From the NCBI GenBank assembly GCA_002633005.1, contig NMRA01000050.1, positions 513,353-577,352 of the forward strand: a stretch of DNA of 64,000 nt. Reading direction: 5' to 3'. Under the pieces are notes generated by a model. It was not told the origin of the DNA. It saw nothing but the letters and a program-made list of their open reading frames with translations, and searched no databases. Of this stretch, positions 1-45,697 are shown one piece after another. The position numbers and the translations under genes are program-made. The stretch is from Phoronis australis (lineage: Eukaryota > Animalia > Phoronida). How positions within the stretch are numbered: the first letter of the stretch is position 1; each line of letters opens with the position of its first letter.

Positions 1-290
1 TCAGCAGGTCTCCTGTCAGCAAGTATAAAATGTATTACTTAACAGCTGGCTTTGAATTTTGATTTTATTTTGCTGTTTTTACTAATTTCAGCGTATCATA
101 GGCGTATGCGATTTAATATGGAAATATATCATAAAAAGGCCTCCAAACCTACTTACTTTGAGTTGTAAGGTGGTTCGTTTTTGCAAAATCCAAATGTGCT
201 GTTGAGTTGTGCATTTGTTTGCTATCATATGTGCATACTTGTGTCTCAATCACTCATCATAGATTTTGACATAATTTGTTTCATCCATAG

Positions 291-590
291 CCTATGACTG
301 TATTGAGTGGAACGAGTGGGTGAGCACTACCTACCCAACACCAGCCACCAAGGGAGACTATGAACCCTTCACGAAGGTGCTCGAACGGTCCCCACTTTGT
401 GCTGAGCCTATCCAGATTCAGTGCCGCAGTGCCGGTCCATTAAAGACGCCATATCAACACACTGGCCAGACAGTGCGTTGTAACTTATGGGAGGGACTGG
501 TATGCAACCACAAGGACCAGAAGGCCAACGACCCATTCTGCTACAACTATGAAGTCAGACTGGGTTGTCTCAAGAACACTTCTGAGTGTC
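291..590 (+). CDS. exon: mucin CysD / Mucin2_WxxW domain
   Basis: tcatccatag acceptor, gtaagt donor; YDCIEWNEWVS..GDYE..IQC..C..GLVC..DPFCYNYEVRLGC; phase 1-1. Confidence 0.92.
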
Positions 591-3500: not shown

Positions 3501-6500
3501 TCTTATGTTTTGGTATTTCTCAATGTATATGAAACTTGGTAAATGGGACATATGCTTTGTAATTTCTGTTATTTGCAAAACATTCCAATGAATTTCAAAT
3601 GATCATGATGGCTGCTTCTTGCATAAGGTTCAAGTTACACCAGACCAGTATTGAGCCACTCAATGGACTCTAACACCAGCCTATTGCTTTTAGGGTGAGC
3701 GACAAGTGATCAGCAAGGAGAACTCATGCACGTGTGAGTGTATCTCATGTCCACCCGAGGAGTTCATGTGTGGTACAGGTGAATGCATACCCATGTCACT
3801 GCGATGCGACAACATCTTCGACTGTGATACAGATGAGGAAAACTGTTTGACAACAAGTAAGTGACTGTGTGAATTCATCCCGCGCACGTTTTTTGTTGGC
3901 ACATTTTGATAGTAAGATCTATGAACCATTGGTAGGTCTTATGTAGGAGCCCTGCCTTAAAAACCAGATGTCACATTTGAGTGTTATGATACATTTGAGC
4001 TTCAGGAAATCCAGCATTTACTGGGTACGGGTTTTGACTTCCCATTATCTAGTTACTGACTTAATGGAGATCCGTCGTCCCTGCCCTTCTGTCACAGAAG
4101 ACAGACATTATCAGATAACATTTCATTATTTAATAGTTAAGATAATATTGTACTTAACCGACAAGGCTACGTGTCCTAAGTGTTGCAAAGGTACATTCCA
4201 TCTACTAGCTCCCTTACTGTTCACTTATACATAACCATCCCAAGGTTGTGGCACCATCTTTGTCCACTCACACTCTGGTATTACTTGTTTGTACAGTTGA
4301 GCTTCTTCCTTAACTGGTTTTAAGCACCACACAGTTGAATGGAATGATGCTTCATGTGCTTTTGCATATTTCAGCTGGTTGTAGTTTTGCCATGCACTTA
4401 CGTAGCTTACTTCGCATTATCCGGTCGTGCACTTTGTACTTTGCACTCACATTTTCGCGAAACCCACGATGTTGGAACGCGGTATGAAGAAATCAAGATG
4501 CCGCATGTTTTTGAAAACGTTTCCGGGAAATTTTCGATTGTAAAACGCAAAAGGTAAAATAACATTATACAGCAATGTGTTAGTAATTTCAAGCTCTCCT
4601 GATGTTATGGTTTTCGAGAAGTGGTTTGGGTGAATCCCAGTTGAAGTCACTCATTACTTCATGCATTGTCGCTGATAACCCTTTCCTTTGTTTGTTGTTT
4701 CTATGGATACTGTCTTTCGTAAACTGATGTTATGTATTTATTAGCGTATTATCATTGAATATAATGTACTTAATTGTTGAATTGTAAAGACATTGTTTTT
4801 AATATTTAATAGGTTATTTAATACGTACAAGACAGTATCAAAGTTATTTGTAAGATCATTGAAAATCTCTGTTTCTTTCTGTCCTTCTTATTTGTCTTGG
4901 TTATCAGCTGGCATGTATGAGTTATAGTGACACCCAGTTAGAAACATTCTGCAGATATGGAGACGATATCTGCGTGAAAACCATCGTATCAGTAGCTTGC
5001 CATTTTAGAACACATTGCTCACATTTCTCTTACGTGTGATCCTCTTGTGTGTAGCTAGTTACTCTCTGTAACTCTTGGGTCACTAAGTGTGACATCCGAG
5101 CACAAACCATATTGGTGGTTGCTGAGGGTGTAGGTTGTGGTTCAATGATTTTGTTGTTTCCACAGCACATGCTGAAACTGTTCACAATTGTGTTTTCCAT
5201 CATGACTCATGGTTATGTGATTCTTGCTATCGAGCAAGAAATTCCACTTGCACTGCGTCATCATAACAGGGAATACAATTTGTGATGAGTGATGGTGATA
5301 GCATGCTATTTAATTGTCACATACCTTTTGACTGTTATTGTGTTTGACAAATACCCCAGTGCACTTCTTTTCATCCACCCTCAGAAAATGTGTGATTGAT
5401 ATCCTCAAAATTAATTTTATTTACTAAACGCTTAACATGTGCAATGGAAAATTGTGTTTTACAAGTTAGCTGCATAGAATGCCATATGGCATGAGAGCCC
5501 TCAATGTCAGTGACTGTCATATGGCATAAGAGCCCTCACTAGCACTGTTATATGGCGTAATAGCCCTCACTAGCACTGTTATATGGAGTAATAGCCCTCA
5601 CTAGCACTGTTATATGGAGTAATTGCCCTCACTAGCACTGTTATATGGAGTAATAGCCCTCACTAGCACTGTTATATGGCGTAATAGCCCTCACTAGCAC
5701 TGTTATATGATGTAATAGCCCTCACTAGCACTGTTATATGGAGTAATAGCCCTCACTAGCACTGTTATATGGAGTAAGAGTCCCCACTAGCACTGTCACG
5801 TTTGTCAAGCTAGAAGCCATCCATATGTTAAGTGTACACCCCATCATCTCCAGTCAGTATGTATAGCCTGCATATTTCTTTCAACACATCTAGCTACCAG
5901 GACACCCAACATGACTGTGACCGTACCCACCAAGGGTCCCACTATGTCTAGCTCAAGGACTCCACCATTGACTGGTAGCTCTATTACAACCATTCCTCCA
6001 ACACCGACACCAACAGTCAGCACCACTTACTGTACGTATCTATGGCCAAATCTGAGTTTTGTTCTGTAGCAGTTCAATTTTATAGTATTTCATCACTAAC
6101 ATTTGAAACTTTTCATTTGTTTATCCAGCAGACTTATTAATGACCTTCATAGCAGAAATACTGGAGAGTAATATGATTTGGTAGCAAATTGTCTTTAATG
6201 GACATATTAAATCATGGTTGATTTAATGAGCAATAAGTGAAAAAATGAAGACTGTTAATCAATACCTTCTGTCCAATGAAGAATATTCTTGCCACAAATA
6301 TGAATTCTAAGTAGCATCATTTTGTATTCACAGTTGGCTTGTACAGCTTGAAAGTATCCTGCCATAATATTCATTGATCTCAAACTACACTTGAAACAAA
6401 AAAAAAACAGTTGCAGGCAGTCTGATACACGTTGTACCAGATGTGCGCAGGCCTTGTATATGGACCCAGTGCACTAATCACCTGGAACTATTTTTATGCT

Positions 6501-9500
6501 TTATTAATATATGGTTAAAACTGAGCTGAGGAGCTAGAAACCTGACTCAAGGGTTTAGCAGTGTGACCTGGTGGAACTCGAACCCACGACCTCGAGTAAA
6601 GAAAGCGGGCACTTATCAACCAGGCCACACTGCCTCCTCACACTTGAAAGTATCCTGCCATGATATTCATTGATATCATATCAAACTACACTTGAAAGTA
6701 TCCTGCCATAAAATTCATTGATGTCAAACTACACTTGAAAGTATCTTACCATGATATTCATTGATATCATATCAAACTATAAGTATCCTGCCATACTATT
6801 CATTGATGTCAAACTATACTTTTTTCCCAACAGCATCACCAGTGAGTATTGATGACACCCAAACTGGTAAAACACCTGTTATCAGCACAATCACGCCTAC
6901 CACTGTGTCACCAACCAAACGGCCAGGTATGTTGACTCCTAATTACCATGTTCTTTGTTGTATCACTAAGCTTTCAACGGTTGAAAGGTTTTATATTTAT
7001 TTTAGTATTGAATGAAGTATGTTGTCCACAGTCTATACGCATTTGACTTCCTGGTGATAAGTACTCATTCTAAGCTAGTGCAGATTTGCGCCTTTTTCAG
7101 TTTGAATTATTTTTTATAATTTAGATTTTTTTTAGGAAGATTTGACTTTCTTTTGCAGATTGTGCCAATGTTACTTGCCCGACTGCAGTGACTCCCACTC
7201 TGAAGGAGGGGTATGTGATGAGGCAAATATGGACTGATGATGGATGTTGCCAGCAACTCATCTGGGAATGTAAACCAGAACAGTGCACAACCAAGGAGTT
7301 TAAGTGCGACGCACCAAAATCTGTTGTGAAAAGAAACAAGCAAGAGTGCTGTCCTACGTTTGAATGCTGTATGTTATTTTTTCTTACTAAATTCATTAGT
7401 AATGAGGAGCATGTAATGTAAAACAATGACGTTATTACTAACCTTGCTGTGTTTGATCTATGACCTGCTGTTATATGCAAGTGCAGTAGAGTTTTATTTG
7501 GCATAACTCAGGACGCTATGACAACCTGAATGGCTCACACACAGACATGTAATGTAATTCTATATTAGTTTGGAAAACTGGGTTTTGCTGAGTGAGAAGT
7601 GAGCTATTACTATAGTAGTAAACGCCCTTCAAGTGTACAGATATAGTATGTTAACTGCTCTGACAACTGTATGTGACTGACGAGTACAAGTTTTTGTTCT
7701 GTTAAATTTTCTGTTCTGTTTTCGTGACGTTCTCTCGTTGTGATTGCAGTGTGCCCGACATGTAAACCAGCCCCAGTGCCTGTCTGTCCGACAGGAATGT
7801 TGGCTGAGCGAGTTTTTGATGCATGCGGTTGTGAAGAGTACAAGGAATGTAAACCAGAGAGGAACACATGTTTCTACAACAGTACTTTCCTGGTCACAAA
7901 CAAGGGTGAAACTGTCAAACGTGTTGTGCCAGTACTACAACGCTACAAGGTGAGAAAGATTGTTTGAATACAGAAGGGCAGCCATGTTTATCGGGGGAAA
8001 CATGTAAACAATGTATTTGCAACAATAGCAGTCGAATCTTTGACAAATCATCAATCTCCCCACAATGTGCATGGTCAGAATACAATTTTTGGATTCAACG
8101 TAGGTGCGAATTCGAGTTACTCAATAATTCAGTGAGTTTTCTGTGTGATAAGGTGTTGGTGGATAAAGTATTGACTCAGAGGTGAATTGGAGCTAAAGCT
8201 ACATACAGTAAAACGACTCTGAGTAAATTCTAATGTTTGGTTTATTATAATTAGTTGATACTTTGTGAGATGTTTTTACCATACTTTTTCAGTGGATGAG
8301 TGATTATCTAGATTCATGTGCTTTTTGACTATTTCAGCCTGGAGATGTGTGGAATGATGGTAACTGCAGAGCATGCAAATGTGAGCTCAACAAGTTGGGT
8401 CTTGATGACCTTTATGAAAGCAAGTGTCTAGACACCACTTGTGCAGCAGTGACTGATGTGAGTAGCAATCCGGCGCCACCTTTTGTAGACACATGACAGC
8501 GTTTTCCCGTTCAGTGACTTTACCAGATGTAGGGGGATCTGAGCGTGTGATAACATCTAGCTTCTTTGTTAACTGCCAAGCACAGTCTTTTGTCTGTTAT
8601 GACAACAAGCAGGCCAATTCTACTAGGCTTATTACAGACCACGTGTGAACACAGTCAAGCTCAAAGTGAATTGGTGTATTCGGAAAGAATAGATTGTCGT
8701 AACTTCAGTTGGGTGATTTTGGCGATTCAAAAACTGATCACCATTTGACGAAGATTTCAGAAATACTGTTGGTTTATGTTCAAATATGTTATAACTTAAC
8801 TTTCATTCTTAACAGCACAGCCCAGTCAGGGTACATATGATTTTATTGGAGATTAGAACAATTATCGAACAAAAGAGAGCTGGCCCTCCAACCATGAATG
8901 CCAGACTGGAGTTAATCAGTCGTGTAAGATATTGGCTACAGGGGTAAACTTCCCAACTTGTTGTTGGGCTATAGAATCGAACAAGTTGGGAGCAATGGGA
9001 AAACGCCGTAATGGATTGGCTAGTTCTTGTTGGCCATTGTGTGATGTCAGGGGAACTAAATTATCTCTAAACAGGTACACTCTACGTGTTTTTGACCTTA
9101 ACCTATTGTATTGCATTGCAACAACATCTAGGAGAAATTCTATCCACTCCCTTTCCTAAAACTCCAGTGACTTTGGAAGAGACTGAAAATACAGTATTAC
9201 ACACAGTTATTTGAAAATTGTAAACCTATAATTAAAACATAGCCAAGGTGTGGCTGCAGAATGATGAATAACTACACTGTCTTGGACACTAAGTTGAAGA
9301 CTGGACACCAAGCTTTATTGTCCAGAATTATGGGCAGCTTGATGAGGTAAAAGGATCCTTATTTCAGAATGGAATCCTAAGTTGGTTGAGAATCAATTTA
9401 ATGAGAACTTGATATAATATTGCCATACTCAATGGGTGTTAACTGGAAGTTAACTACTGATTGAATCAACCATGCACAATGGATTTTAACTGCCAGTTAA

Positions 9501-12500
9501 CTATTAAAGTGTATACAATGGCTGCTAACTGGGAGAAAATGAATTGTAAACATACGATGGATTTTCTTGGTAATTTACTGTTAGCAGATACTTCTCAGAG
9601 TATATCTTTGCTATGGCTATGTACATTTGACTGTGTTGCTTCAGTCTAGCACCACGCTAGAATTCATGTCAGTGATTGCAGCCATGTTCTCTGTGATGTT
9701 TCCAGGACATGATTGAGTTGCCATACACGACCACAACCCAGTGCTGCAAACAAACCAGAAAGGTCAAATGTAAAGCAGTTATCAACAGCATTGAGAAGTT
9801 GATGAATGAAGGTGATGAGTGGTCCAACCCTAATAAGCCATGTGAGACGTACAAATGTGTCACCGGTCTTGACGGCAATGTTCAAATAGAGACGATCAGA
9901 CAAAACTGCAACCGAGTGTGTGAACCAGTGAGTAGAATGTCAACGCGATTGTGAAATGGAAAATCATTAGTATTGCTATGAAGGTTATGATCTTCACTAA
10001 CGTGGTTGTGATTGTTATTGTAACTAATGTTTCAACTTTTGTTAAGACTGGCTAGTTTTTGCCAGTTTATTAGTTACAAATGTGAGACACTGAAACAAAA
10101 CACTTTAGCAGTAATTGTTAACATAAAAGTCCTCTCAGTAAATAATGTTATGACCCTCTAGGCAAAGGAATGCATTTTTATCTTGTTTAAAAACGAAGCT
10201 ATCCCAAATGTACAGCAGAGTAAGGCCAAATTATAAGGTCATTCCAATTCTTCATATACATGGTTAGTTATTATTTTTGTTTTCTGCAAATCAGTCGTAA
10301 CCACAACGATAGGTGCTGTTCAAATTAACACAATGATAAGTGCTGTTAAAATTAACACAAAATTAACTGGCTAAAATCATTCGATAAGAATACTGAATAC
10401 TGTTCTCAATGATGAAGCTAAACAACCCGTGTTATAAAGTTCAGGGACATGTTCCAAGAAACTGGCTTACCGTAAGTTCCTTTTTGACTTAAGTCTAAGG
10501 TTTGTCTCAACTTCCAAACTTTGAAACTTCCACATCTGTTAAGTTAGTCAAAATTAAGTCAAAATTTTGGTAAAAAATAAGTCAAACTAAAATTTTTTAC
10601 ATGAAACAGGCTGGAGACAAATTCAAGTTTTATCTTAGAATTGACTGGAATTTAAGATTTGTCTTAGCTAAGTCAGTTTTCTTAGAACAGGACCCAGTGT
10701 GGCGAACATGGTCTTCTGATCATTCTGCTCCTGAATATAGTTCCATTCTCAAATACATGCGGTGTCCTTATGTGCAGGATTTTAGTGTATTCTGTTTCTT
10801 CCCAGGGTTCCCTATACAAAAATCCATCAGATGCCAGCACCTGCTGTGGTACCTGTGAACCCGTTGCCTGTGTCTTCGAAGGCAAGGTATATAGTGTTGG
10901 TGCTAGCATTCCTAGCAACAACACATGTATCCGTCTCAAGTGCGACAAGTTTTCATCTGGAGTAGGCATCACCCAAACTGATATACCATGCACACCACCA
11001 AAACGATTCTGCAAACCAGGGGAAAGTGAATTTTCCGACAAAGACTGCTGCAAGCAATGCATCCCGAGCTCGCCTGGTAATTTGTTGCCTCATTTTTCTA
11101 GAAACTAGCTACTGATAGAAATATGGTATCGCATTGTCAAACATTTTGACCATAAGAAGCTTAAAAGCTTGTGGTCAAAGTGATATGAGTGTTTTGTTTT
11201 TGATTATCTCTTGCTCATGCTAATGTAGATTATGACTCTTCCACTTGTTAATATTTGGCTTTGGGATTTTTTCTTCATTACACTTGTTTTTTATCTGGTT
11301 ACTGCTTCTTTGCAACTAAATGTTTCGTAGCTTTGATGAAAATTGTCAAGAAACTAACTGAAAATTTCTCCCACACTGTGAAAACAACTGGATCTTTTTA
11401 CTGAGCAGAATAGCAGCTGTACGATTTCTGCAAAAACTGCTATGCACTCTGCTGATGTTCTTAGACCATAACCTCCACAGAGCCTGCCATGAGTCAGATA
11501 ATGATAATTTGGCTCTTGTATTATAAGCGATTCTTGGCTTTCACTCACACTATGACACTGCCTTAAGAAGGTGAAATCTATATTTTTCCAGTTCTTCGTC
11601 TAATGACAGTCATCTAACTTTCAAACTTATTTTTAGTCTTTTACTCTCAAAGTCATTTTTTCCTTAATTAGCAAAAGGTGTAAATCATGGTTTACTTCTG
11701 TACATTTCTAGCACAATGTGTAGAGTGTGCTGCTAGGGATCCTAAGACGGACACTATTGGTTATTTCCAACTGACTGTGCCAGGAAAAGGAATTTGCCGC
11801 AACACCAAACCAGTTGCTGGTCTCAAAGTATGCCGAGGCTCCTGTGCCTCGAAGTCTCACTATTCTTTGGTCATGGCTGGCTTTGACAACCAGTGCAATT
11901 GCTGTCAGCCAGCTGCAGTGGAAACCAGGCAGGTGGAGCTGTTGTGCAAGAATGGTGAAACTGTTGTACGAAACCACACTATTCCTACAGCATGTGGCTG
12001 CGGACCTTGTAAGGCAGGTCTTCGGTAGATTCAGTCACTTAGGACTGCACCATGATGATGTCAACCAAGGAATTTGAACTGGACCATGCACTGTAATTCT
12101 TCTATAAAAATAGGCAGAGCCTGGTCAAAGATTACAGTTGATGCTATGGACTGCCGACTTCACACTGTTAGTTAAATGTGTAGTGTTTATATCTACATAT
12201 AGACAAATCTCACCATGTGTTCATATTTAACATTAACTGTTTTATGTTATATTCCCTTAGTACAATATATTTGGATGACGAAATAAACTTTTATTTTTGT
12301 ACGCTTTTTTTGCTAAAATGAACAGACTGAGGGTATATTATTCCAGAATTGTATACAAATATTTGTGATTCATATATATCTTTGATTTAATTTGCACCTG
12401 GTGTTCTTAATCTGCAGTTGTGTTCATGAATCTTTTGATAACATTGTGTCCTACTTTGGACGTCACTGACATGCTGCAGTAGGCTATATCTTTAATTGTT

Positions 12501-24500: not shown

Positions 24501-27500
24501 AAAATAAATGTGTTTTCCACCGTGACCACAAAGTTGGGTAAGGTGTTCGTTTATGAATGTTTTGCGATGTTTTATCACATATTTATGCCGTGGTTCAAAA
24601 TTGATTGACGACTGGCGCATGTCCGCTTACCCCCCCCCCCTTATNGCATGTCCGCTTACCCCCCCCCCTTATTCTTGTCTTACTTCTTTGCTGAGCATTG
24701 AAAATGTTATTGAGTCACGGAGTGTCGACTATAAACATCCCAAACACAAAAAACACCTGTATTAGTTTTTCAAACTTTATTACAACTAATTTTAAAACTG
24801 CTCTCTGACTCGGCACTTGACAGTTAGCACGGGACTGTAACCTTGATGTCAGCTGTGACCTCTGCAACACATGAGGCTTGTACGCGCGCACTTTTGCAGT
24901 GTCATCGCTTGCGATCAAGTGGAGCGCTGCGTGGTCACTGGTCGTCTGCGCACTACAGTTCTAACAAACTAACAAGACAGCAGGATGGCATGGGTCCATT
25001 GCTCAGCAATTTTATAAATTTAATCGTTAATGACTAATCTGAGGGCAACAGAACCTTTGTTGGGATTATCCGCTGTTATGAAGTTTTTACCGACGTGACG
25101 ATAAAGCTCTTTGAAAAGTGCTACGCGTACCGAGTATGTGTATGGTGTGGGGACGAGGTAAGATTAACCGCCCAGGGCGGTTGTCTATCGTAATAAGCGC
25201 CCATGTTCGGTTACCCGCCCACCCTAGATTTCTTGAAATTTCACGTTTAAGCGCCCATGTCTAGTTAACCGCCCACCCCCATTTTTGGGTTTGCCAATTT
25301 AACCGCCCAGGCCGTTAACCCAAACGTTTACGGTAACATAAAATCTGACAGGAAATAACACAGTTCATCATGTATGGCAAAAGATGTTTATTTATTCAAA
25401 CTGATTAGTTTGAGTCTTCGATACAAATATGCCATGTGGTGTCTCAATTAGCAAACTAAGGGTAGCTCTGATGTTGCCAGCCAATGGGAAAGGTAAGTGG
25501 AGCTGTAGAGTTGCAATAGTTCCTCATTACGGTTTGGTGGGAAAATGGATTTTTTTAATAATTTATTCTAATTGGGCAGCCACTGATCCAACAAAAATTC
25601 AATAAAATGCTGTTCAAGTAATCAGCTTGTTAAACTGAAGCATTGCATCTTGAATGTAAAAGAAAGTTTTGATTTACAATGATTGAATTATTGGCAACTG
25701 GAGTGGTTGTAATCAGACAATAGGTGACTTAATGGTTGAAGGACAAGGATTGTGACCATGGTAATTACTTTGAGGCGATGCAGTTAGGAGTTTGGTGTTC
25801 TAATATTGCTTGGTAATGTTTAGTTGGGGATTCACAGAATACAGGGTACTTGTTATTCTCATGCCTGAATGGACATTTAGAAATAATAGGCATGTGGTGT
25901 ACACACTCTGTTGATGTACTGTTCTGTGTTTCATCCTCAGGGTGTCCACCTTGTCCCACACTCAAAGTTCCAATTCCTAGCCTAGGTGAGGAGTTGCGTA
26001 CAGTGAAGACGGCCAATGGATGCTGCGATAAATACGAAGTGGTGTGTGTGCCTTCAAAGTGTACAAATACTTCCAACTATTGTGAATCCCCTCAGCAAGC
26101 CGTCCGCGTGAATATGGGTCAATGTTGTCCAGTGTTTGAGTGCAGTAAGTTTAATTCATTATCCATGTAAAAGAAACTGCGAGTAGGACCGAAAGAAGAT
26201 AGATTGGCATTTCAAAACATTCCAAGATATGCAGTCAGTAGCTACCTATATTTGCAGACTCAAGAAATTGTACAAGTTATATGCTTTGACTCTTCAGGTA
26301 TTCAGGGTTTCACAGGGATATACTTAGCCACTCGCCCAGTCGCCCCATGTGAGTAAAAACGGTGTTGGGCGAGTAGAAGTTGACTTGCCGATCGGTCAGC
26401 TGGCGAGCGAATTTTCAGAGCGGAAAAGCATATTGTTTCCCAGATTAACACCATGAATAAATTTTCTGCTTCTGTTCAGTTTGGTGAGCGTGACAATACT
26501 GCGGCAGTAAAAAACATGGATCTTATGGATTCAGTAGATGTCACCTGATTCGTCTAGACACACAGTGTGTGGTAGTGTACAAAGGAATGTGTACTAGTCT
26601 GAAATGAAGAAAAGGGGGGAAAGGCCGAAGACTGATTCATGTGCTCACAGCAAGTGAAATACCATATTTCTTGGGAACTGATTTCTTATTGTGATGTACA
26701 ATGTCATTTTAGCCAAAGCTACTTTATAAATAATAACATTCGTCCTAATAAGCGCCCATGCCCCTATGAGCGCCCCCCTCTAGTTTTCAGACTTCACTAA
26801 AATAAGCGCCCAGTCCATGAACGTGTATATGCACATGCAATAAATGCCTTACCTACAGTTCTAAAATTCTCCAGTAATGTGTTCAATTTATCAATAATAT
26901 CCAACAGTCCTGAAAAATCATTGTGCGCGGAATTTCTAGACCACGAGCCTTGCCGCTATGTCGGTATTTAGCCGTGGCTGTACAATTCAAACGTCCGCAG
27001 TGCTTCAAAAAGAACGCTAAAGTTTTGCTGATCTTGGGAGGAACGTGCCCCACTATGGTCTGGCCTTTCAGAACAGACGCTGCGTACTTGCCACAGGGAT
27101 TGTATTGTATCTTTACCATACAGATCTTCTCCCTCAACAGGAATCTAAATTACTTTGTACTCGTAAAAAACACGAATCAAAACTTGACCAGTGTTAATGA
27201 GCATGTGGACAAGAAGCTCGTGCTAGGGCCTACATATATGTGGGCGTGCTACTTTGGAAAGAACTCCGATGACGCGCTTGCTCACTGGGCACGCACTTGC
27301 AGACTTAAAACAAACATCACGTAACAACAACTTGTGTGTTCGTCCATAAGTTTTCTCGTGTTGCGAGGTGCGATCTAGCGCAGATTTGGATTTAATCTGC
27401 ACTTAATCCTAGCTCCACAGTACCTTAAAAAATTAGGGACACTATTTGGAAAGGTTGAGGAGGATTTCAGGTAATTTGTTGAGTCGAAAGTGTATTTTTA

Positions 27501-30500
27501 CTCAAAAACTCAAGTTAACCTATCGATGATTGTGAGACAGCAACGCATCAGTAGGCAAGTTTTCGCCCTGGGATTTCAGCACATTTTTTTAAAAAAGATC
27601 GTAATTTAACAACAAAATTTGATAGCATTGCACCAAAGTTTTGTAGGAAGCCTGTCGTAAGTTACAGATACGTCACAGTGCATATTAAAATTTGATGAAT
27701 CCTAACTTCCGATGTCATCCGTTTTGGAGACCAGGTTTCAACTGCTTATTAGGGCGAATGCAGTAGCCTATAAGATGGTGACATCAACGTACGAAAAAAT
27801 GATTTTTATTGACCGTGGCAGCAAGGTTGTGGTGACAGACACAAACAGCCAGGTGACAGAACTTCGCACTGGGCGAGTAGATTTTCTGGCTCGCTCACCC
27901 AGCTGGCGAGCAGGGTTTTGAAACATAGGTATATCCCTGTTTCAGAATTAAATGACATAACAAAACGTATATAAGTCAGGCGACATAATAGATCAGTGAA
28001 TTAAACACAAAGGCATTGTAATGAACTTGGCATACACATGCAATGCAACAGGTTGGATCTCTCATATAAAAATTGTGTTAAAATTATCAATCAGTTTTGT
28101 CTCAGATATTGGTGCTCGTGTTGAGCTTATTTCAGATATCTCACAAGGACATTCAAAAACTAGGTTTTAAGTAAAACTTTTACAACTGTTTTTGAGTCTT
28201 TACTGGTGATTTACAAAGAACCTCGAGGAAATTTTCTTGGCAGCAGATCAGAAATCCCCTGCACATTTTTCTGAAGGTATTGAGTTTCAAAACACAAAAC
28301 ATCATAGTATTAGTATCCTTGCAACTGAAGGTAATTGACATATTTCAGGATGTCCATCGACAAAAGGCTGTGTGATTGGAGTCAAGCCAGAATGTCCACC
28401 TGTAAGTATTAATTGGAAGCGTTTTGGTAAGGCTGACAAAAACTTTTTAAACACAGTTTGAAGTTTGCATTTTTGTTTCGACGGGATTTCCATTTAATGT
28501 GAGAATGGCCTTATATACGAGTCTGGCTTTTTATTCGGGCCTGGTAAATATTTTCATGGATTTTTTAGCGAGCCAATATTTTATTGACTTTGATTGTACT
28601 TATCTTTTAATATCCCAGGTCATGGACTAAATTTTGAGGTTGAGAGCTCTCAAAATGCATTATTTTGCTCATAAAATGCCATAGCCTTATAAATCAAGCT
28701 TTGCGGTAGATAAATTAATCATTGGTAGGTCTACCAAGGGGACAGTACGAAGCCCAAGTATCATCTTCTTATGAATTAGCATCCGTGAGAGTGGACGAGA
28801 CAGTGTGGCTCAGTGGTTAGAGCTCCAGACTCCCACTTGGGAGACCTTGGTTCAAATCCTGGCTTCACTGGTTGACATTCGGGCATGGCACAAAGGTGTT
28901 ACCTGTTCCTCTAAGCTTGGTCTAACTTGTGAACGTGTGCAAGGGAGTCAATGAGAACTTGGATATAATGCGAAAGCAGTTTCTGGGGCTGTGCTCTTAA
29001 CAAAAGCATCCATGACAGATTGTAATAGTAATGTCAATAAGGAAAGGTTAGAGGAATTTTATTCTAAGCTTTACAATTGATGTAAACAGTGACATACTTG
29101 ACCTGTCTAGGGTCTTGTATAGCTTGAGTGTAGATGAACGGCTTAGCTCTTCTTTATTTCTTCAAATAAGTAGTACTGTTGTTTTTGGTGAAGCAAAGCA
29201 TAGTTGATATTCCTCAATATTATCTATGGATAACCATCTGATGTAAGTTGTTACCTTCAATTTAGTGGACATCCCAGAAGTTCATGGAATTGAATGAAAA
29301 GCTTGATGCTTATGAGATGTCTTGCAAGGTCAAAGCTCTGAGACTAAGTATTATGCAATATTCAGTACAAAATCAATATATGGAAATTAACCATTTCAGG
29401 GCCTGGAACCAACTGTCGAGAAAGAGCAAAAGTGTGGCTGTATCTCTTATCATAAACCTTGCAGTAAGTATATGTGTGCTTTTGTTGATTAGACTTCTGT
29501 TGGGCTATTTTTAGTCATGTGGGGATATGAACAATAAGTATTTGGCACTGTCATAATGTCATAAGGTAAATCAGTCCTGTAAATTGTAAAATGTTTTGTG
29601 TATGTTATACTTACAACAATTCTCAGTTTTAACCTAGCCTAGTAAACATTTTGAAACCAGTTGGAAAGTGATCTAAATCATTCGTAAGTTAGTTTTAAAT
29701 GAGGAGGAAAGGTGTACAAGTTGAAGATATGCTACATATTTCTAACTACTTTTAGCATAAAATGCAAGTGATGAATTTTAACATTTTTAATGTGACAATT
29801 ACCATCATCATTAAACACCATAACAATCACATGAAAAGAACTTCTTTAAATCTTGAAACTGTGTGAAATTTATCCGTGTGCGAGACGACGCCTCTCAACA
29901 ACCATGTGGGACTTTACACGGTTACAACATCTACATCTTTGAGACAAAGAGCAATGCTTTAGCAGTATCCGAACCAAGTCTCATTCTTATGATCTTTCAA
30001 CCATACCTACTAGTATATGAACGTGCGCTTTTAGTTCCCCATTTTAAAGCATCACTGCTTTAAATAATCAATCAACGGTAAAATTTCACCAATTTAGGAC
30101 ACAATATGGCCACCAGATGAAATTTTATTTTCTAACTTATTTCACAAGTACACTTTACCACATTAATATTTTACCATGTTCGGGTTTTGTATGGTTTTTA
30201 CCATCACTCACTGAGAGGCAATTTTGGCAATTATTTTTGTCCCAAATTGGTGATCATTTACTGTACTTCAGCTGAATACACTAAGGAAACTCTATCAGGT
30301 GTAACAACAACATTGGACATGCCTTTGTGTGACATTTACTGGACTACTTATGAGCAACACAATACTTTCTCTACCAATACAAATTGAAGTACAGCACTCG
30401 ACACCAACTCACATTTGGGGACTCGGCAAAAATCCCAGGTCGCCAAAACTGACGTCGAAATCATAGAGGTCGTGCTGTACTCCGTTCTCAAAAAGTTATG

Positions 30501-33500
30501 AATACCTCAGTCTTCACTTTCTCCCTGTAAAAAGTATGCACCATAACCTTTTACTCAATTCCTCCTGCCAACGAGGAATGCAGATTATTGATCACGTACA
30601 CTGGAGGCGCATCTTTCCGATCTTAAACCATCTTTGCCAAACAATTCTGACTTCCATATCTTAGTTCCTGTAATTTTAGAGCATTTTATGTGTGCTGACT
30701 GCTGAGGGTGGCAAATGCACTGATTTCACGAAATAAACGGAAAAATTGTGAACCAACTAAAGGTGTTAAATCTAGGAAAACTTAGTAGTTTAAAGTTTGG
30801 AAGTCACCACATATGTTGAAACAAATTTTGGGAGAGCCATCTGTAAATTGATGCATTTCCCTGTCACAGGGACTAATTGTTTTACTAATCAAAATTACTT
30901 CTTTTTCCAGGACCGCCACCTGGTGTCTGCGTGTATAACAGTGCCACTCAAGGACAACGATTCTACAATGTGAGTAATACATAACTTGTGTTAGTTGATA
31001 ACAGTCTTGCCATGTTATCCACCATTCACTTAGCTGGTGACCAGTGTATTGCACTTGTTTGCTTGTCGCTTTTCAAGCATTTCATAATTTTGTTAGCAAA
31101 TTTCTCCTGGAAATTTTTTGTTAGTAACAGCCTGTGATGTGAGTGCAATTCTTGTCTGCGTAGTTATGTGTTATGTTGCTCCATTTATTCCACGGGACAA
31201 AGACTTATCTGTCATTGACATCCTGATGTGTGAGGTGTATGGTTTACCTAACAGTTGTTCATTGTCTTGCTTGCAGGCTTCAGACATTTGGCAAGATGGT
31301 CCATGTATCTCTTGTCAATGCGTCCCCAGCGCAATAGAGGGTGAGCATGAGGTGAAGTGTACTGTACAGCAGTGCCCCATAAAGGGTCAGGTGAGTGTGA
31401 TAGTGGTCTCACAATTTGTCAACTCAAGCAGTTTGAATAAGAGTTGTGGACAATTTGGCCTGGTATTAACTACAGCAAGCTGCCGTAGGATTGGGTAATG
31501 CTCTGAGTGATGAGATATAGAAAAACATTGACTTAATTAGCAACCTTTTATGAAATGGGTTGAGGTTTAAGAGAGCCAGCATAAAGATGACAACTAATCA
31601 ACACTGATGAATAATGGGATAACAAGTTAACTGAGGTCACTTCGAAAAAATGGTAGAAGGAAGACAACTTTTGTCCAACATTGAATCAACTTTTAAATCA
31701 GTAAATACTTGTTCTAGCCTACGCGCTGTTATAATTTGCAGGAATATGATTACGTCAACGTCACCACCACAGAGTGTTGTCGACCAATGATTAAAACGAG
31801 ATGCTTGGCAGACATTAATGGAGAGATGAAATTATTCAAGGTAAGCACGCCTGTCGCGCCATAACATGATTCACTGTTACAGTGACACCATTGTTGATTT
31901 TGTGTGACACCCATTTTGTAAAGTTAAATATGACTTGATTCGTGAAAATTTTGAGGGACAAGATTCAGAAACTCTTAGTCTACATAACTGCACATTATTT
32001 GATTTTGATGACATAATTTTAGATGTGATTTTGAGGCTTACATTAAGTTTTTGTCAATATTCTTTGTATAAATGGTATAAGAAATATGCAACCCATTCAA
32101 ACTGTTTTTGGGACAATTTCATTACTTGTATGCAACAACCATGATTTTTCAAGGTGCATGTGAATATACATGACGTTTTGCAATTCCTTTTTTTCTTTAA
32201 TATTTCGAAAAATGTAAATATAATTTTTATTTTTATTTTGCCGCATCCTTGTACACTAGCTTGCCCAAGAGACACAACCAGGGGTAATACTGGGTCACAG
32301 ACTTTCGGTTGTTTTCACAAAGCTCTTGTCTCCCTACAGGCTGGTGAATCATGGGAGATACCTACACAGCCATGCACCAGGTACATGTGTGTCATGGAAG
32401 GTGGCACGGGTGCCAGGATAGAAGTGACCAAGGACACATGCTCAACCCCTGCACCTACTCTACCAACACCAACATCAGGTAACCCGGAGTCTATTTGATT
32501 TACAGCAGCACTTTAATGACTCAGTTTACAGCAAACCAATGTTTTTAACCATGCTATGAACATTCCCACTAAATAAGATTGGTTCTAACCCCAGTGGTTA
32601 AGGTAAACGGCGGGGTATGGAAAATTGAACTAGACCGTATTTATCCACCTTGGCTGAGTCGCGCTCGGCTCACGATCAAAGGGATGCTGCCAAGCTGCTC
32701 TAGTCATCGAGTCACGAGCGAGGATAATTGGCTTCGCTCATGCGGATATGATCAGCTGATTANNNNNNNNNNNNNNNNNNNNNNNNNNNNNNNNNNNNNN
32801 NNNNNNNNNNNNNNNNNNNNNNNNNNNNNNNNNNNNNNNNNNNNNNNNNNNNNNNNNNNNNNNNNNNNNNNNNNNNNNNNNNNNNNNNNNNNNNNNNNNN
32901 NNNNNNNNNNNNNNNNNNNNNNNNNNNNNNNNNNNNNNNNNNNNNNNNNNNNNNNNNNNNNNNNNNNNNNNNNNNNNNNNNNNNNNNNNNNNNNNNNNNN
33001 NNNNNNNNNNNNNNNNNNNNNNNNNNNNNNNNNNNNNNNNNNNNNNNNNNNNNNNNNNNNNNNNNNNNNNNNNNNNNNNNNNNNNNNNNNNNNNNNNNNN
33101 NNNNNNNNNNNNNNNNNNNNNNNNNNNNNNNNNNNNNNNNNNNNNNNNNNNNNNNNNNNNNNNNNNNNNNNNNNNNNNNNNNNNNNNNNNNNNNNNNNNN
33201 NNNNNNNNNNNNNNNNNNNNNNNNNNNNNNNNNNNNNNNNNNNNNNNNNNNNNNNNNNNNNNNNNNNNNNNNNNNNNNNNNNNNNNNNNNNNNNNNNNNN
33301 NNNNNNNNNNNNNNNNNNNNNNNNNNNNNNNNNNNNNNNNNNNNNNNNNNNNNNNNNNNNNNNNNNNNNNNNNNNNNNNNNNNNNNNNNNNNNNNNNNNN
33401 NNNNNNNNNNNNNNNNNNNNNNNNNNNNNNNNNNNNNNNNNNNNNNNNNNNNNNNNNNNNNNNNNNNNNNNNNNNNNNNNNNNNNNNNNNNNNNNNNNNN

Positions 33501-35262
33501 CGTAAATTTGATGAATCCTAGCTTCCGATTTTACCCGTTTGGGAAACCGGGTTTCAACTGCCGTAGGCTCACTACAATAAGCGTCCCCTCCCCGTGAAGT
33601 GAATTTTTCTAAGCGTTTGTTTGAGCCAATACAGTATACAGCTTTCCACCAAGGCTAGGTGATGCAAGACATTATTCTTTGTTGCATTATAGTAACTGGT
33701 CTTGGCTAATTATCATTTTATGGCCTGGTCATCCATTCAGCCAAAAGTAGTTCCAGAGGTGGCTTATCAGCCAATTATTCACGCATGCTGACTCACAATA
33801 GAAGCCTGATAAGAGTGAAGGTGGATAAATGCGGTGTTCCTACAGTTTCTTGTTTTAGTGGATGTGTTCACCACATGCTTTTCTCCAATCTGAAAACCTG
33901 AAAGCCACTGCTTTTGTTGGTGGTAGTGAATGGTTATTTTTAATTCGTGCATTCTCAGTCTGCCATCAATGGCCTATGCTAGCATTGACAATTTCGCTGG
34001 GTGGGGGCTTTACTACCAGGTATTGGAATTTCAACATGCTGTACCCATTTTTTATCATCAGCTGCATAAGCAGCATTGCCATTACTATCAATAGCACCCA
34101 GTTGGCAAGAACTGAGAAATATAAATACCTGGGTGTTGTGATTGATAATAATTTATCATGGGCCGAACATGTTGAGTATGCGCCTGTGCAAAAAAGTTTC
34201 TCAGCAGATTGGGCTTTTGTACAGAGTCAGGAGCTATGTTGATCAGGCTACTCTTCAGACTATGTATAGGAGTTTAATTGTACCACACTTTGATTACTGT
34301 GATGTTGTATGGGGTAACTGTGCATCATACCTTCAGGATAGACTTCAAAAAATTACAAAAGAAGGCTGGGAGGCTGATACTCAACTATAGTCGCCTTTAT
34401 AACGACTTTCCTAATTCTGACCTCGATACACGTTGTTGGTACAGCCTGGTTAAAAGGCGTGCATTTCATTTAAACTTTATGGTGTACTAATTCACACATA
34501 GCCTCACACCTAATTACCTCACTACTACATTCAAACTAGTCAGAGATTCTCACAGTTACAATGCTAGAGCAAGTGTTTTTGGCTGCCTGGTGCCAGATTA
34601 ACCTAAAAACAACTGTGGCAACAAAACTTTTGCCTACAGAAGTGCTGTTGCTTACAACGGGCTGGGGACTGCCGTCGTGAACGTGCCCAATGTCCACGTC
34701 TTCAAACAGAATTACTGGGACTTTGTGCGTGGTTCGGGACTGTTGGCCTCAGCTCATTATTTTATTTCATTTATTAATCTTTTCAATCTAAGTGTACATA
34801 GCTCTTTGTATTTACTTCGTGTAATTCTTTCCGACTAGAACCACTGGAAAATCAGTGTATTCATTGAAGTAGTCACCCAGTCTTTTAAAGAGATTAAATA
34901 AATATTAAAAACCTAAACCATTCGTTTTTGTTTCAGTGTCACGACAGTGTGAAACGTGTAAGGCTGTGTTAACCTTTGGCAACCCTCAGGACACAGTCGG
35001 CTACTTCAATGTGGACATTGATGGCAAAGGCAAATGCAGGAACGAAGAAGTAATTGATGACTTGAAAGAGTGTGCTGGCTTCTGTGACTCCAGGACGATG
35101 TATTCACCACAGATGTTGTTCAAGAACAACTGCAACTGTTGCCAGCCAAAGAAGACAGAGTCTAGACGGATCAAGCTGAAGTGCACCAATGGGGAGACAC
35201 ATTTCCGCGACTTCCTTATGCCAATAGTTTGTGGCTGTGGCTCCTGCCTGGGTGGAAACTAA
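291..35262 (+). CDS. 3' portion of a hemolectin/hemocytin-like gel-forming mucin (VWF family) locus, 33 coding exons, 5' end upstream of the window; two alternative/paralogous C-terminal modules
   Basis: All exons have AG/GT boundaries and join in frame without stops; domain order WxxW, PTS, VWC-like, LDL-A, PTS, VWD-C8-TIL x2, VWC, CTCK resembles insect hemocytin/hemolectin (recalled, not searched). Confidence 0.85.
974..1170. repeat. 49-bp minisatellite, 4 copies
   Basis: tgattgcagtgcactctcactggcaatagtactgtctactgtgtgacca at 974, 1023, 1072, 1121. Confidence 0.95.
1244..1831. mobile_element. piggyBac-type MITE
   Basis: TTAA|CCCTTATCCTGC ... GCAGGATAAGGG|TTAA: 12-bp TIR and TTAA TSD, no coding capacity. 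Confidence 0.85.
2011..2237 (+). CDS. exon: short PTS repeat (SSISPSPT x2) plus Cys-rich TIL-like segment
   Basis: ctttgcag acceptor, gtaatt donor; CPKEGCPQGQACDGVKCVDRSECPC. Confidence 0.88.
2271..2405. repeat. 39-bp minisatellite, ~3.5 copies
   Basis: cagacattgactgctccatgtcaagtatactctcatac-type unit repeated. Confidence 0.85.
3139..3234 (+). CDS. exon: VWC-like segment (missed by ORF track)
   Basis: tctttcag / gtgagt; PGMFSTNDECKTCTCFNGKPRCLPKVCPRCKN. Confidence 0.9.
3694..3856 (+). CDS. exon: LDL-receptor class A repeat (missed by ORF track); phase-1 donor is the probable branch point
   Basis: ttttag / gtaagt; CPPEEFMCGTGECIPMSLRCDNIFDCDTDEENC. Confidence 0.92.
5519..5796. repeat. 31-bp minisatellite, ~9 copies
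   Basis: tatatggagtaatagccctcactagcactgt repeated. Confidence 0.95.
5894..6031 (+). CDS. exon A1: PTS (mucin-like)
   Basis: catctag / gtacgt; TRTPNMTVTVPTKGPTMSSSRTPPLTGSSITTIPPTPTPTVSTTY; phase 1-1. Confidence 0.8.
5894..12028 (+). CDS. C-terminal module A (8 exons: PTS, PTS, Cys-rich/VWC x5, CTCK), ~523 aa, no VWD
   Basis: Exons 5894-6031, 6834-6926, 7159-7368, 7750-7949, 8338-8457, 9706-9927, 10806-11076, 11712-12028 splice in frame. Confidence 0.88.
6347..6820. repeat. ~43-50-bp degenerate minisatellite interrupted by a SINE
   Basis: cttgaaagtatcctgccat.atattcattgat..caaactaca unit at ~6347, 6643, 6691, 6734, 6781. Confidence 0.8.
6397..6639 (-). mobile_element. tRNA-derived SINE with 10-bp TSD
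   Basis: minus strand ggcagtgtggcctggttgataag (A box) ... ggttcgagttcc (B box); flanked by acacttgaaa at 6387-6396 and 6640-6649. Confidence 0.75.
6834..6926 (+). CDS. exon A2: PTS
   Basis: ttttttcccaacag / gtatgt; SPVSIDDTQTGKTPVISTITPTTVSPTKRP. Confidence 0.82.
7159..7368 (+). CDS. exon A3: Cys-rich (VWC-like)
   Basis: ttttgcag / gtatgt; CANVTCP..GCCQQLIWECKPEQC..ECCPTFEC. Confidence 0.9.
7750..7949 (+). CDS. exon A4: Cys-rich
   Basis: ttgcag / gtgaga; CPTCKPAPVPVCPTG..CGCEEYKECKPERNTCFYN. Confidence 0.9.
8338..8457 (+). CDS. exon A5: VWC (missed by ORF track)
   Basis: atttcag / gtgagt; PGDVWNDGNCRACKCELNKLGLDDLYESKCLDTTC. Confidence 0.9.
9706..9927 (+). CDS. exon A6: VWC
   Basis: tttccag / gtgagt; QCCKQ..C..EGDEWSNPNKPCETYKCV. 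Confidence 0.9.
10444..10695. mobile_element. Harbinger-like MITE
   Basis: imperfect TIRs gggacatgttccaagaaactggctta / taagtcagttttcttagaacaggaccc. Confidence 0.55.
10806..11076 (+). CDS. exon A7: VWC
   Basis: ttcccag / gtaatt; TCCGTCEPVACVFEGKVYSVG..TCIRLKC..DCCKQC. Confidence 0.9.
11712..12028 (+). CDS. terminal exon A8: C-terminal cystine knot (CTCK)
   Basis: tttctag acceptor; CRGSC..CNCCQP..C..CGCGPC, stop TAG. Confidence 0.93.
12282..12540 (+). terminator. polyadenylation signals of module A
   Basis: AATAAA at 12282-12287 and 12535-12540, each followed by U/GU-rich sequence. Confidence 0.6.
14057..14826. mobile_element. Harbinger-like MITE containing a tandem array
   Basis: imperfect TIRs ggatctgtttctagaaagtgacttaaggca / tgtctcaagtcactttttatgaaatgggcc. 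Confidence 0.5.
14116..14672. repeat. 55-bp minisatellite, 10 copies
   Basis: aactgttgagtaaagacttagctaagtgtgtatgagcacatcacaatatagatat at 55-bp period; contains 12-bp palindrome acttagctaagt. Confidence 0.97.
15059..15238 (+). CDS. exon B1: PTS
   Basis: ttttttgcctgtag / gtattg; MLVPSTIATISPTNRNLTT..SPTMTPSLPSEQTTTMVMPTMSAST; phase 1-1. Confidence 0.8.
15059..35262 (+). CDS. C-terminal module B (21 exons: PTS x2, VWD-C8-TIL, VWD(GDPH)-C8-TIL, Cys-rich/VWC, CTCK), ~1098 aa
   Basis: All 21 exons splice in frame with GT-AG; first exon has a phase-1 acceptor and no signal peptide. Confidence 0.88.
15731..15811 (+). CDS. exon B2: PTS (missed by ORF track)
   Basis: catttacag / gtaagt; ITKPQDTIGTTYTKKLSTPTPTTVVT. 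Confidence 0.78.
16088..16210 (+). CDS. exon B3: VWD N-terminus
   Basis: tttgcag / gtaagt; CSVHGNSFKTFDGKHYNYEICKHTLV. Confidence 0.9.
16740..16888 (+). CDS. exon B4: VWD
   Basis: tttctag / gtcagt; C..CSRSLEIVVDG..VQVNG. Confidence 0.85.
17172..17291 (+). CDS. exon B5: VWD (missed by ORF track)
   Basis: ttcacag / gtatgt; LSTSLAPTFKLKSVGDENIVEIPQFNMVIHWTKSYDVDVK. Confidence 0.85.
17801..18009 (+). CDS. exon B6: VWD C-terminus
   Basis: tttag / gtgagt; NGLCGTLTGTPTDDL..FGDGW. Confidence 0.92.
18752..18954 (+). CDS. exon B7: C8 domain
   Basis: ttctag / gtaagt; FSQCHKLLPVDDYMDVCVEDLCEC..CKC..FSRSC..DW. Confidence 0.92.
19297..19479 (+). CDS. exon B8: TIL domain
   Basis: ttgcag / gtaagt; CPPDQVWNECGGSCPRTC..CVPGCQCRPG..CVPIDQC. 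Confidence 0.93.
20086..20309 (+). CDS. exon B9: second VWD N-terminus with GDPH motif
   Basis: tccag / gtaggg; [27 protein letters not shown]. Confidence 0.94.
20589..20787 (+). CDS. exon B10: VWD
   Basis: cttcag / gtaagt; ends YYGITEGLCG. Confidence 0.92.
20938..21434. mobile_element. MITE with long imperfect TIRs
   Basis: aaggggtgaatcaacaattggttggacttcaaa ... tttgaagtctaaccaattgttgattccccctt. Confidence 0.75.
21661..21841 (+). CDS. exon B11: VWD C-terminus
   Basis: ttggcag / gtaatg; GNCNNNKTDDL..FGMSW. Confidence 0.9.
22383..22561 (+). CDS. exon B12: C8 domain (missed by ORF track)
   Basis: ctccag / gtaagt; FKECHPLINPLSYYDSCVFDSGC..CESFTAYARACAMVGVCLTWRSEDMC. Confidence 0.92.
22734..22940 (+). 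CDS. exon B13: TIL domain
   Basis: ttccag / gtaagt; CGANMEFNQCGPSCTKTC..DGCFCKPG..C. Confidence 0.92.
23213..25333. mobile_element. non-autonomous Tc1/mariner (pogo-like) DNA transposon, 2.1 kb
   Basis: TA|CCGTAAATGTTTGGGTTAAC ... GTTAACCCAAACGTTTACGG|TA; TA TSD; many subterminal TAA(C/G)CGCCCA motifs. Confidence 0.85.
25941..26144 (+). CDS. exon B14: Cys-rich, paralogous to A3
   Basis: cctcag / gtaagt; CPPCP..GCCDKYEVVCVPSKC..QCCPVFEC. Confidence 0.9.
26313..27939. mobile_element. hAT-like non-autonomous element with 5-bp TSD, containing a nested pogo-like fragment
   Basis: TIR CAGGGATATAC ... GTATATCCCTG; TTTCA on both flanks; subterminal GGCGAG motifs. Confidence 0.75.
26890..27185 (-). 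pseudogene. degenerate HIRAN-like domain (transposon cargo)
   Basis: IRVFYEYKVI*IPVEGEDL / NPCGKYAASVLKGQTIVGHVPPKISKTLAFFLKHCG..GLEIP; stop and frameshift. Confidence 0.6.
28349..28401 (+). CDS. exon B15 (53-bp micro-exon)
   Basis: atttcag / gtaagt; CPSTKGCVIGVKPECPP; phase 1-0. Confidence 0.8.
28797..28870 (+). mobile_element. tRNA-derived SINE head
   Basis: gtggctcagtggttagagc (A box) ... ggttcaaatcc (B box); acceptor stem does not pair. Confidence 0.65.
29400..29463 (+). CDS. exon B16 (64-bp micro-exon)
   Basis: atttcag / gtaagt; GLEPTVEKEQKCGCISYHKPC; phase 0-1. Confidence 0.82.
30076..30265. mobile_element. small mariner-type MITE
   Basis: acggtaaaatttcaccaatttaggac ... gtcccaaattggtgatcatttactgta imperfect TIRs. 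Confidence 0.5.
30911..30969 (+). CDS. exon B17 (59-bp micro-exon)
   Basis: tttttccag / gtgagt; PPPGVCVYNSATQGQRFYN; phase 1-0. Confidence 0.82.
31277..31390 (+). CDS. exon B18: VWC, paralogous to A5
   Basis: ttgcag / gtgagt; ASDIWQDGPCISCQC..VKCTVQQC. Confidence 0.9.
31742..31840 (+). CDS. exon B19 (missed by ORF track), paralogous to 5' half of A6
   Basis: tttgcag / gtaagc; EYDYVNVTTTECCRPMIKTRCLADINGEMKLFK. Confidence 0.88.
32340..32478 (+). CDS. exon B20, paralogous to 3' half of A6
   Basis: cctacag / gtaacc; AGESWEIPTQPCTRYMCV..CSTPAPTLPTPTS. Confidence 0.88.
32763..33500. other. assembly gap (N run)
   Basis: 738 N; right flank 33504-33560 matches 27688-27743 (same pogo-like family). 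Confidence 0.99.
34071..34903 (+). mobile_element. 5'-truncated CR1/L2-group LINE (RT C-terminus plus 3' UTR)
   Basis: KYKYLGVVIDNNLSWAEHV; KKVSQQIGLLYRVR; YRSLIVPHFDYCDVVWG; RRAFHL; frameshifts; ends ttaaataaat. Confidence 0.85.
34937..35262 (+). CDS. terminal exon B21: second CTCK
   Basis: tttcag acceptor, phase 1; CAGFC..CNCCQP..C..CGCGSC, stop TAA. Confidence 0.93.
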
Positions 35263-35537
35263 ATAACATGTCTGGACGTTGTGAATGAGAATGGACAGAG
35301 TTCTTTAATTTGTAATCGTTTGTGTAGCTCAGTGCTTTGTGAATCTTTATGGTGTATTTTCAATGGTCAATGTTGAGAAATGACCAGACGTTCAGTTGAG
35401 GTTACAACTTGTTTATTGCTCTTCGTACAATATATAGACAATACCACCACAGTACTTTGAATATTCAATAACTTACAATTTCAGGTGGTGGGAGTTATAA
35501 CTATTTTTTCTACAATTTTATACATATTAGAACTGGT

Positions 35538-35543
35538 AATAAA
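35538..35543 (+). terminator. polyadenylation signal of module B
   Basis: AATAAA ~275 bp after stop. Confidence 0.55.
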
Positions 35544-41929: not shown

Positions 41930-42320
41930 ATGGCAACATATCAGATACCAGAGCCAACCCCCATGTCAATGCAGGGGAACGTGGCGGAGAACTGGCGATA
42001 ATTTGAAACTGCGTGGATAGACTACATGACTGCCAAATAACTAGATATAAAAATGGTTAAGGCTTGCAGTACCCCAGACCTGAAAGGGGTATCTATTGTT
42101 GCTGCAACACTCTGCTCTATCATGGGACAGGAGTGTAAGCGAGTACTGTGTAACTTACCTAACGTCAGTGCAGAAGACAGGCGCAATCCCCAGAAGATCA
42201 CTGATGCCTTAAAGGTTACTTTGTCCCTCAAAAAAATGTTCTCTACGAGAAATTTGTCTTCAATCAAGCAGCCCAAAAAAACTGGAGAGACCATACTTTA
42301 AGAATCGTCACCACTTGACC
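41930..42320 (+). mobile_element. Gypsy gag N-terminal fragment
   Basis: MATYQIPEPTPMSMQGNVAENWR*FETAWIDY..VAATLCSIMGQEC; upstream LTR-like end ..gcaaca at 41871. Confidence 0.75.
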
Positions 42321-42334
42321 AACTGAGAAAGGGG

Positions 42335-45478: not shown

Positions 45479-45697
45479 GGAAGTCGAGATTTCAGCTACG
45501 GCGTTACCGGAAATGAACATTTTCCTGAGTAAACAACTGTTGTGTGGCTATGCGATTTTATAAAGTTTGCCCAGTGTACTGTCCAGTGTTTGATAAATAT
45601 GAAGCTAGAATAGTAAAGAAAAGACAATCGTAATATCCTGCTACTGTTAGTGTTACTTCTGAGTGGAACACTGCAAAAAAATAAAAAAACCTTCATC

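Follow-up and report, generated by a model that had tools for sequence, protein, structure and literature searches.

The cystine knot sets the pairing and polymerisation of mucins and of vWF (von Willebrand factor). The closest mechanical analogy to the gene described here, although from an unrelated family, is the choice between the IgM and IgD constant regions, in which one donor serves a pair of paralogous modules that consist of several exons and have separate poly(A) sites. For GNAO1, NECTIN2 and ZFP64, duplicated 3´ coding exons are described between which splicing and the poly(A) site decide, as is likely the case here, and the accessible part of the same source counts 236 human cases derived from tandem exon duplication, with 8 to just over 250 residues each, 77 of them C-terminal (PMC8373072). 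In mouse Muc19/Smgc, too, a single transcription unit offers a choice of exon sets downstream; the available text describes Smgc as a Muc19 splice variant and does not mention a second cystine-knot tail (PMC7815129). As far as the excerpts available show, among MUC2, MUC5AC, MUC6 and vWF the forms that have a C-terminal D assembly and those that lack it are encoded by different genes (PMC10082768, PMC10880436), whereas here both are made by one gene. Arthropod hemolectin/hemocytin (Ixodes XP_042149989.1) consists of LDL-A, two VWD-C8-TIL assemblies, a VWC array and a CTCK, and the arthropod hemocytin records that we compared have one tail each, without a VWD-less form or a second CTCK module. 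The 3+2 VWD layout of such mucin-like proteins has been reported, as have CysD insertions in non-insect protostomes (Lang et al. 2016, PMC4948705), and the word "alternative" is absent from the main text of that paper. In the literature searched (titles and abstract openings, with few subscription journals), a choice between two cystine-knot tails was not found for any mucin or hemolectin.

The Phoronis australis gene presented here belongs to the known class of duplicated 3´ exons and is an unusually large variant of it, in the mucin family and with two knot-bearing tails. It is located in a window of 64,000 nucleotides, by which we mean the whole stretch of DNA analysed. As the preliminary description of this DNA had claimed, a single gene carries two multi-exon tails that are used as alternatives: reads link the donor at 3856 to the acceptors at 5894 and at 15059. 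This reading is confirmed by RNA, from short reads and contigs, and we hold it with high confidence. In comparison to the human cases, the exchanged ends are large (522 versus 1105 residues, encoded by 8 versus 21 exons) and unlike in domain content, and they are about two to four times as large as the biggest duplicated-exon substitution in the human catalogue.

RNA data came from a contig set (X1) and from three raw stranded runs (X2 to X4) carrying the same species label; reads were aligned to positions 200-20100 and 11800-17990 of the window, and X4 held next to no reads on the gene. Rebuilt from the sequence, the gene comprises 33 exons, all on the forward strand (four upstream exons, eight of tail A and 21 of tail B), and every splice site is GT-AG. 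The gene extends further 5´ than the window, and in X2 there are 242 loose ends in front of position 291. The shared exons encode a CysD (Mucin2_WxxW) domain (U1, 291-590; Pfam E 3.5e-23; joined to 2011 in 185 reads of X2 and 36 of X3), a short PTS stretch with a Cys-rich unit (U2, 2011-2237), another Cys-rich unit (U3, 3139-3234) and, as the last shared exon, LDL-A (U4, 3694-3856; Pfam E 9.7e-9), U2 and U3 being placed by the exon rebuild and by read joints. The U4 donor as well as the A1 and B1 acceptors are in phase 1.

Tail A (5894-12028, 522 aa to the stop) starts at the proximal acceptor with two PTS exons (A1, 5894-6031; A2, 6834-6926), followed by a ten-cysteine exon (A3, 7159-7368), A4 (7750-7949), two VWC-like exons (A5, 8338-8457; A6, 9706-9927) and A7 (10806-11076), which holds the end of one VWC and a full VWC with a weak Pfam match (E 0.0039) and for which no counterpart was found in B. 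Read joints support all eight exons. The tail ends with a CTCK stop exon with 12 cysteines (A8, 11712-12028; Pfam Cys_knot E 2e-6). Tail B (15059-35262, 1105 aa to the stop) starts at the distal acceptor, also with two PTS exons (B1, 15059-15238; B2, 15731-15811). Its first VWD-C8-TIL assembly (16088-19479) is encoded by B3 (16088-16210), B4 (16740-16888), B5 (17172-17291), B6 (17801-18009), B7 (18752-18954) and B8 (19297-19479), with five of five joints in reads, and the second (20086-22940) by B9 (20086-20309), B10 (20589-20787), B11 (21661-21841), B12 (22383-22561) and B13 (22734-22940); Pfam placed VWD in B3, B6, B9 and B10, C8 in B7 and B12 and TIL in B8 and B13. Cys-rich and VWC-like units, the last of them truncated, follow at 25941-32478 (B14, 25941-26144; B15, 28349-28401; B16, 29400-29463; B17, 30911-30969; B18, 31277-31390; B19, 31718-31840; B20, 32340-32478), here placed by the exon rebuild and by alignment; joints in the second assembly and in these units are predicted. 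The CTCK stop exon of tail B also has 12 cysteines (B21, 34937-35262; Pfam Cys_knot E 4e-5).

The two stop-free exon series seen earlier behind the LDL-A exon have therefore stood up to the exon rebuild, since neither frame has an internal stop, and so has the pairing of a CTCK stop exon with AATAAA in each of them (signals at 12282 and 12535 for A and at 35538 for B). The tail lengths, given before as about 523 and 1098 aa, are now 522 and 1105. The Pfam scan took in 19 exons; a tblastn search of the window found no third tail module further downstream. PTS stretches within the window are short (76 aa at 63% and 86 aa at 52%).

The joint from U4 to A1 (3856-5894) was found in 209 reads of X2, in 47 reads of X3 and in one contig. 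At B1, 47 reads of X2 and 22 of X3 run past 15059 into the sequence of 3827-3856 with an agreement of 1.0: the 30-letter consensus of the loose ends before 15059 is identical to the last 30 bases of U4, a 30-mer that is unique in the window, and the loose parts have a median length of 58 bases in X2 and 82 bases in X3. Both junctions named in the preliminary description are thus present. The joint between B1 and B2 was crossed by 53 reads of X2 and 14 of X3, and since this is similar to the number of reads coming from U4, input from U4 accounts for approximately all of B. Among the joints listed for the two aligned stretches, all three U introns and all seven A introns appear as GT-AG read joints; for tail B, this was seen for seven of 20 introns, the other 13 being predicted from the sequence.

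Tail A is the major form, and B makes up about 18% of the U4 exits in X2 and 32% in X3, with mean A:B joint ratios of 5.8 and 2.5, respectively. These ratios are rough, because the U4-A1 and U4-B1 counts differ in threshold (90 versus 92) and in method (joint versus loose end) and because the B joints are further away from the 3´ end, with a possible 3´ bias. The difference between the two runs may be individual or technical.

The A transcript has a 3´ UTR at 12029-12560: read depth falls to about 1 beyond 12627, and an X1 contig ends at 12543, which fits the AATAAA at 12535. Read pile-ups at 12332 and at 12531-12533 were considered as cleavage sites and not accepted, and the read ends listed include none with a poly(A) tail. 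The B 3´ UTR is predicted at 35263-35560. Its end comes from the length of an X1 contig: the contig starting at 17242 has 2984 bases, the gene model needs 2717 to the stop, and with the 267 bases left the end would be at 35529, which is nine bases short of the AATAAA.

Some observations on the shared part should be mentioned separately. In X3, the U2-U3 and U3-U4 joints have only 19 and 24 reads versus 69 leaving U4, the X2 counterparts being 204, 220 and 256; a further upstream skip or a divergent allele may be the reason for the low X3 counts. In an X1 contig, 87 bases stand in place of 21 at the U1-U2 boundary (590-2030), which lengthens the PTS repeat by 66 bases net without changing the frame and is likely a length allele. 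Furthermore, the intron in which the tails are chosen has about four-fold sense coverage in X2 at 3857-5893 and 12630-15058, compared to none in three B intron bins, as would be seen with read-through RNA or if the donor for which the tails compete were spliced slowly.

The two tails are paralogous. They match in blastp with 32% identity over 298 aa (E 8e-43), and their CTCK exons, A8 and B21, are 49% identical, whereas blastn detected no similarity between the modules at the DNA level. Introns occupy the same alignment column and phase in A3/B14, A4/B15 and A5/B18. The strongly diverged pairs proposed before (A3/B14, A4/B15-17, A5/B18, A6/B19-20 and the CTCK exons) are borne out by these matches: the tails are homologous alternative 3´ coding exons that are spliced, in the reads, to the same upstream exon. 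Identical bases were found at 14 of 48 four-fold sites, compared to 26% expected at saturation, while 39 Cys-Cys pairs are common to A and B. This saturation together with the 39 cysteine pairs and the open frames indicates that the duplication is old and that both copies were kept intact.

The differences between the tails suggest that the 3´ end was long ago duplicated in tandem within the gene and that reciprocal losses came later, in which the VWD block would have gone from A and one and a half VWC units from B. Tail A has the complete VWC layout of tick hemocytin, a fuller array than that of B, which is without the second half of one VWC and without the whole next one. A VWD remnant was found neither in the A region nor in the spacer (best E 2.4). 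The B VWD block matches the Ixodes protein with 34.5% identity over 655 columns, and its best match is the block behind LDL-A of tick and spider proteins (356 and 327 bits, versus 197-219 for the N-terminal blocks); thus, judged from sequence similarity, it was likely inherited rather than recopied.

Two homologue searches with single exons gave no matches, and a three-sequence profile search recovered homologues, which are gene models found through the knot. A U1 or U4 anchor was present in 28 of 63 proteins of at least 400 aa. Behind the anchor, 20 of the 28 have no VWD (16 from six species of lophotrochozoans, namely Mya, Sinanodonta, Haliotis, Batillaria, Bradybaena and Owenia, and four others), and the eight with VWDs all belong to the Ixodes cluster, Trichonephila or Caerostris. 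The lophotrochozoan models (Haliotis XP_048245088.1, Owenia CAH1788470.1, Sinanodonta KAL3831915.1 and those from Mya, Batillaria and Bradybaena) have the U1-U4 block, PTS, a VWC array and CTCK, as isoform A has, and among the annotated models compared none has a B-type tail. The U1-U4 part matches Haliotis at 50-59%; the Haliotis orthologue has F5/8 type C domains and, at its N-terminus, three VWD-C8-TIL units, all of which would be encoded upstream of the window in the Phoronis gene, a 7888-aa Haliotis model carries N-terminal VWD assemblies and none after LDL-A, and seven Haliotis isoforms share one C-terminus with this model. It is possible that relatives known as gene models contain second tails that are not annotated. 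In Mya arenaria, several VWD-less copies of the C-terminal half are present on three contigs (P0002, P0003, P0005 and P0009), in which additional CysD units follow LDL-A or CysD and precede the tail. A metagenome scan returned one locus (L001, with a spliced tail) out of 307 pattern matches.

One locus in Phoronis therefore makes both architectures, the VWD-less, mollusc-like A and the VWD-bearing, tick- and spider-like B. The initial view that B is the canonical tail and A the odd one holds against arthropods only, since the A layout is the usual one in 16 of 16 named lophotrochozoan homologues and A is the major isoform. The label "hemolectin-like mucin" can be refined to a hemolectin-type mucin of a non-insect, as CysD/WxxW is present and the tails group with lophotrochozoans. 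CysD, Cys-rich units and LDL-A precede the tail (Pfam for U1 and U4), as in hemolectin-type proteins, and the C-terminal VWD assemblies of that type are present in isoform B and missing in isoform A.

In trees, A as well as B groups with proteins from lophotrochozoans (100/99 versus chelicerates), nearest to Owenia. A and B are sisters in the trees of seven and six rows (92/94 and 96/94), and B joins Owenia in the 19-row tree (91/82). AU tests do not reject either alternative (A and B as sisters, p-AU 0.186; A with bivalve tails, p-AU 0.156), and for this reason the trees do not date the duplication. A truncated second VWC as a trait common to B, Owenia and Tubulanus was discarded, as the break points differ.

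If B were an independent gene, it would need a promoter of its own in the spacer (12561-15058, part of the 11.2-kb intron between U4 and B1) and could start at the in-frame ATG at 15061, which opens B1 and had been missed earlier. Coverage of the spacer is low, with a sense-strand depth of 1-9 in the bins wholly inside it, as might be expected for a separate unit. But there is no signal peptide at this ATG, and reads splice into 15059, two bases before it. The stranded reads of X2 and X3 show neither joints nor a start pile-up in the spacer, and a sequence scan of it returned no signal-peptide-like exon, in agreement with the earlier statement that no ATG/signal-peptide exon in the spacer feeds B1. 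As the 47 and 22 reads entering from U4 approximately match the 53 and 14 crossing from B1 to B2, a separate promoter is hardly conceivable. A second identical U4 could feed B1 if the locus consisted of two tandem genes and the 5´ half of the second were collapsed or missing in the assembly, or if the transcripts were trans-spliced. The assembly might be misjoined at a tandem repeat of 55 bp (14116-14672), and the loose-end consensus is visible over 30 letters only. Such an arrangement requires, however, that U4 stayed identical while the tails diverged to saturation. Every spacer bin is covered by sense-strand reads in both runs, and the shared joints in X2 (185-220 reads) are near the sum of both exits (256), as for a single source; we thus regard tandem genes or trans-splicing as highly improbable.

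It might also be that only A matters and that B is a leaky read-through relic of the ancestral tail without function. B is the minor form, its last VWC is truncated, the shared part contains 41 cysteines in B, which is an odd number, and all named lophotrochozoan homologues found dispense with the VWD block. A relic would nevertheless not be expected to keep 21 exons and 1105 codons intact beyond synonymous saturation or to contribute between roughly one fifth and one third of the junction reads. In B2, two alleles with indels that remove three bases net were seen in the reads, and they keep the frame. In MUC2, moreover, truncation of a VWC is normal, according to the part of PMC10082768 available. 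A functionless B is thus very unlikely, and we retain one gene with two alternative tails.

The last B intron, between B20 and B21, contains an assembly gap of 738 N (32763-33500) that had been missed earlier. The length fit of the X1 contig, together with the phase-1 donor of B20 and its Ser/Pro/Thr linker, which resembles the pre-knot linker of A and relatives, favours the absence of a hidden exon. The VWC that is absent from B is kept in four of the four relatives shown, and an exon could be hidden in the gap if the contig stopped early. The sequenced part of this intron contains no A7 remnant (best E 0.40). Beside the gap, at 33859-34600 on the forward strand, a degenerate stretch without a Pfam match resembles the end of a LINE reverse transcriptase.

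Both CTCK exons match the vWF CK domain (E 4e-14). The cysteine spacing of the two knots, 12-4-17(16)-2-1-14-16-2, is that of the vWF CK core, and both retain the C-x-C-C that matches vWF C2771/C2773/C2774 (bond list from the accessible parts of PMC8626975 and PMC6333368). The knots differ from vWF in that the last cysteine follows three residues on, not five, and in one extra N-terminal cysteine, and from each other by one residue in the loop before C-x-C-C. An AlphaFold model of B21 was mediocre (pLDDT 66), and a fold search with it gave no match at E <=0.001, vWF CK being at ranks 2-3. By analogy with vWF, dimers joined tail to tail by the CTCK are likely for both forms. Tail B in addition has its two VWD-C8-TIL assemblies with a GDPH motif at 20103. 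This motif is self-cleaved in MUC2, MUC5AC and FCGBP (PMC10880436, accessible part), and the MUC2 dimer is shaped by the C-terminal globular region and the stalk (PMC10082768, accessible part).

The U4 donor faces two acceptors, 2.0 and 11.2 kb away, leading to two stop exons. The choice is likely made by competition, with the use of A and its poly(A) sites on one side and a skip to B on the other. Recognition of A1 would lead to splicing through A and to a transcript end at 12.3-12.55 kb; if A1 were passed over and the polymerase read through, U4 would be joined to B1. In a matrix made from the gene's own sites, a weak score, A1 ranks 28th and B1 ninth of 33 acceptors. The choice would switch the dimer-forming end of a secreted polymer: B dimers would carry an extra globular VWD head with a predicted acid self-cleavage site, and A dimers a plain stalk. 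From what is known of the family, the A:B ratio would tune a gel or clot.

With an identical N-terminal half, the two isoforms form a natural matched pair for asking about the roles of the C-terminal VWD assemblies and of GDPH. Loci of this kind may be divided in annotation, or their second tail may be omitted. A more far-reaching and rather doubtful idea is that of an ancient regulated polymer switch, in which the tails would pair only with their own kind and build two mucin or clot networks, the locus being at the same time a preserved intermediate of the loss of the VWD block in lophotrochozoans. If so, this gene would have second tails, so far not annotated, downstream of its stop exon in worms and molluscs other than Phoronis, and invertebrate mucins would make repeated use of duplicated tails with cystine knots.

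Elsewhere in the window, a 184-codon open frame on the reverse strand (62752-63303) has kelch-type repeats by eye and no Pfam match. On the forward strand, pieces at 42319-43140 and 45053-45529 match the transposase DDE_Tnp_1_7, and their order implies two separate copies. Directly behind the second piece, a 402-codon open frame (45617-46822, forward strand) has a weak PNMA match (E 0.0055) and resembles an LTR-retrotransposon gag.
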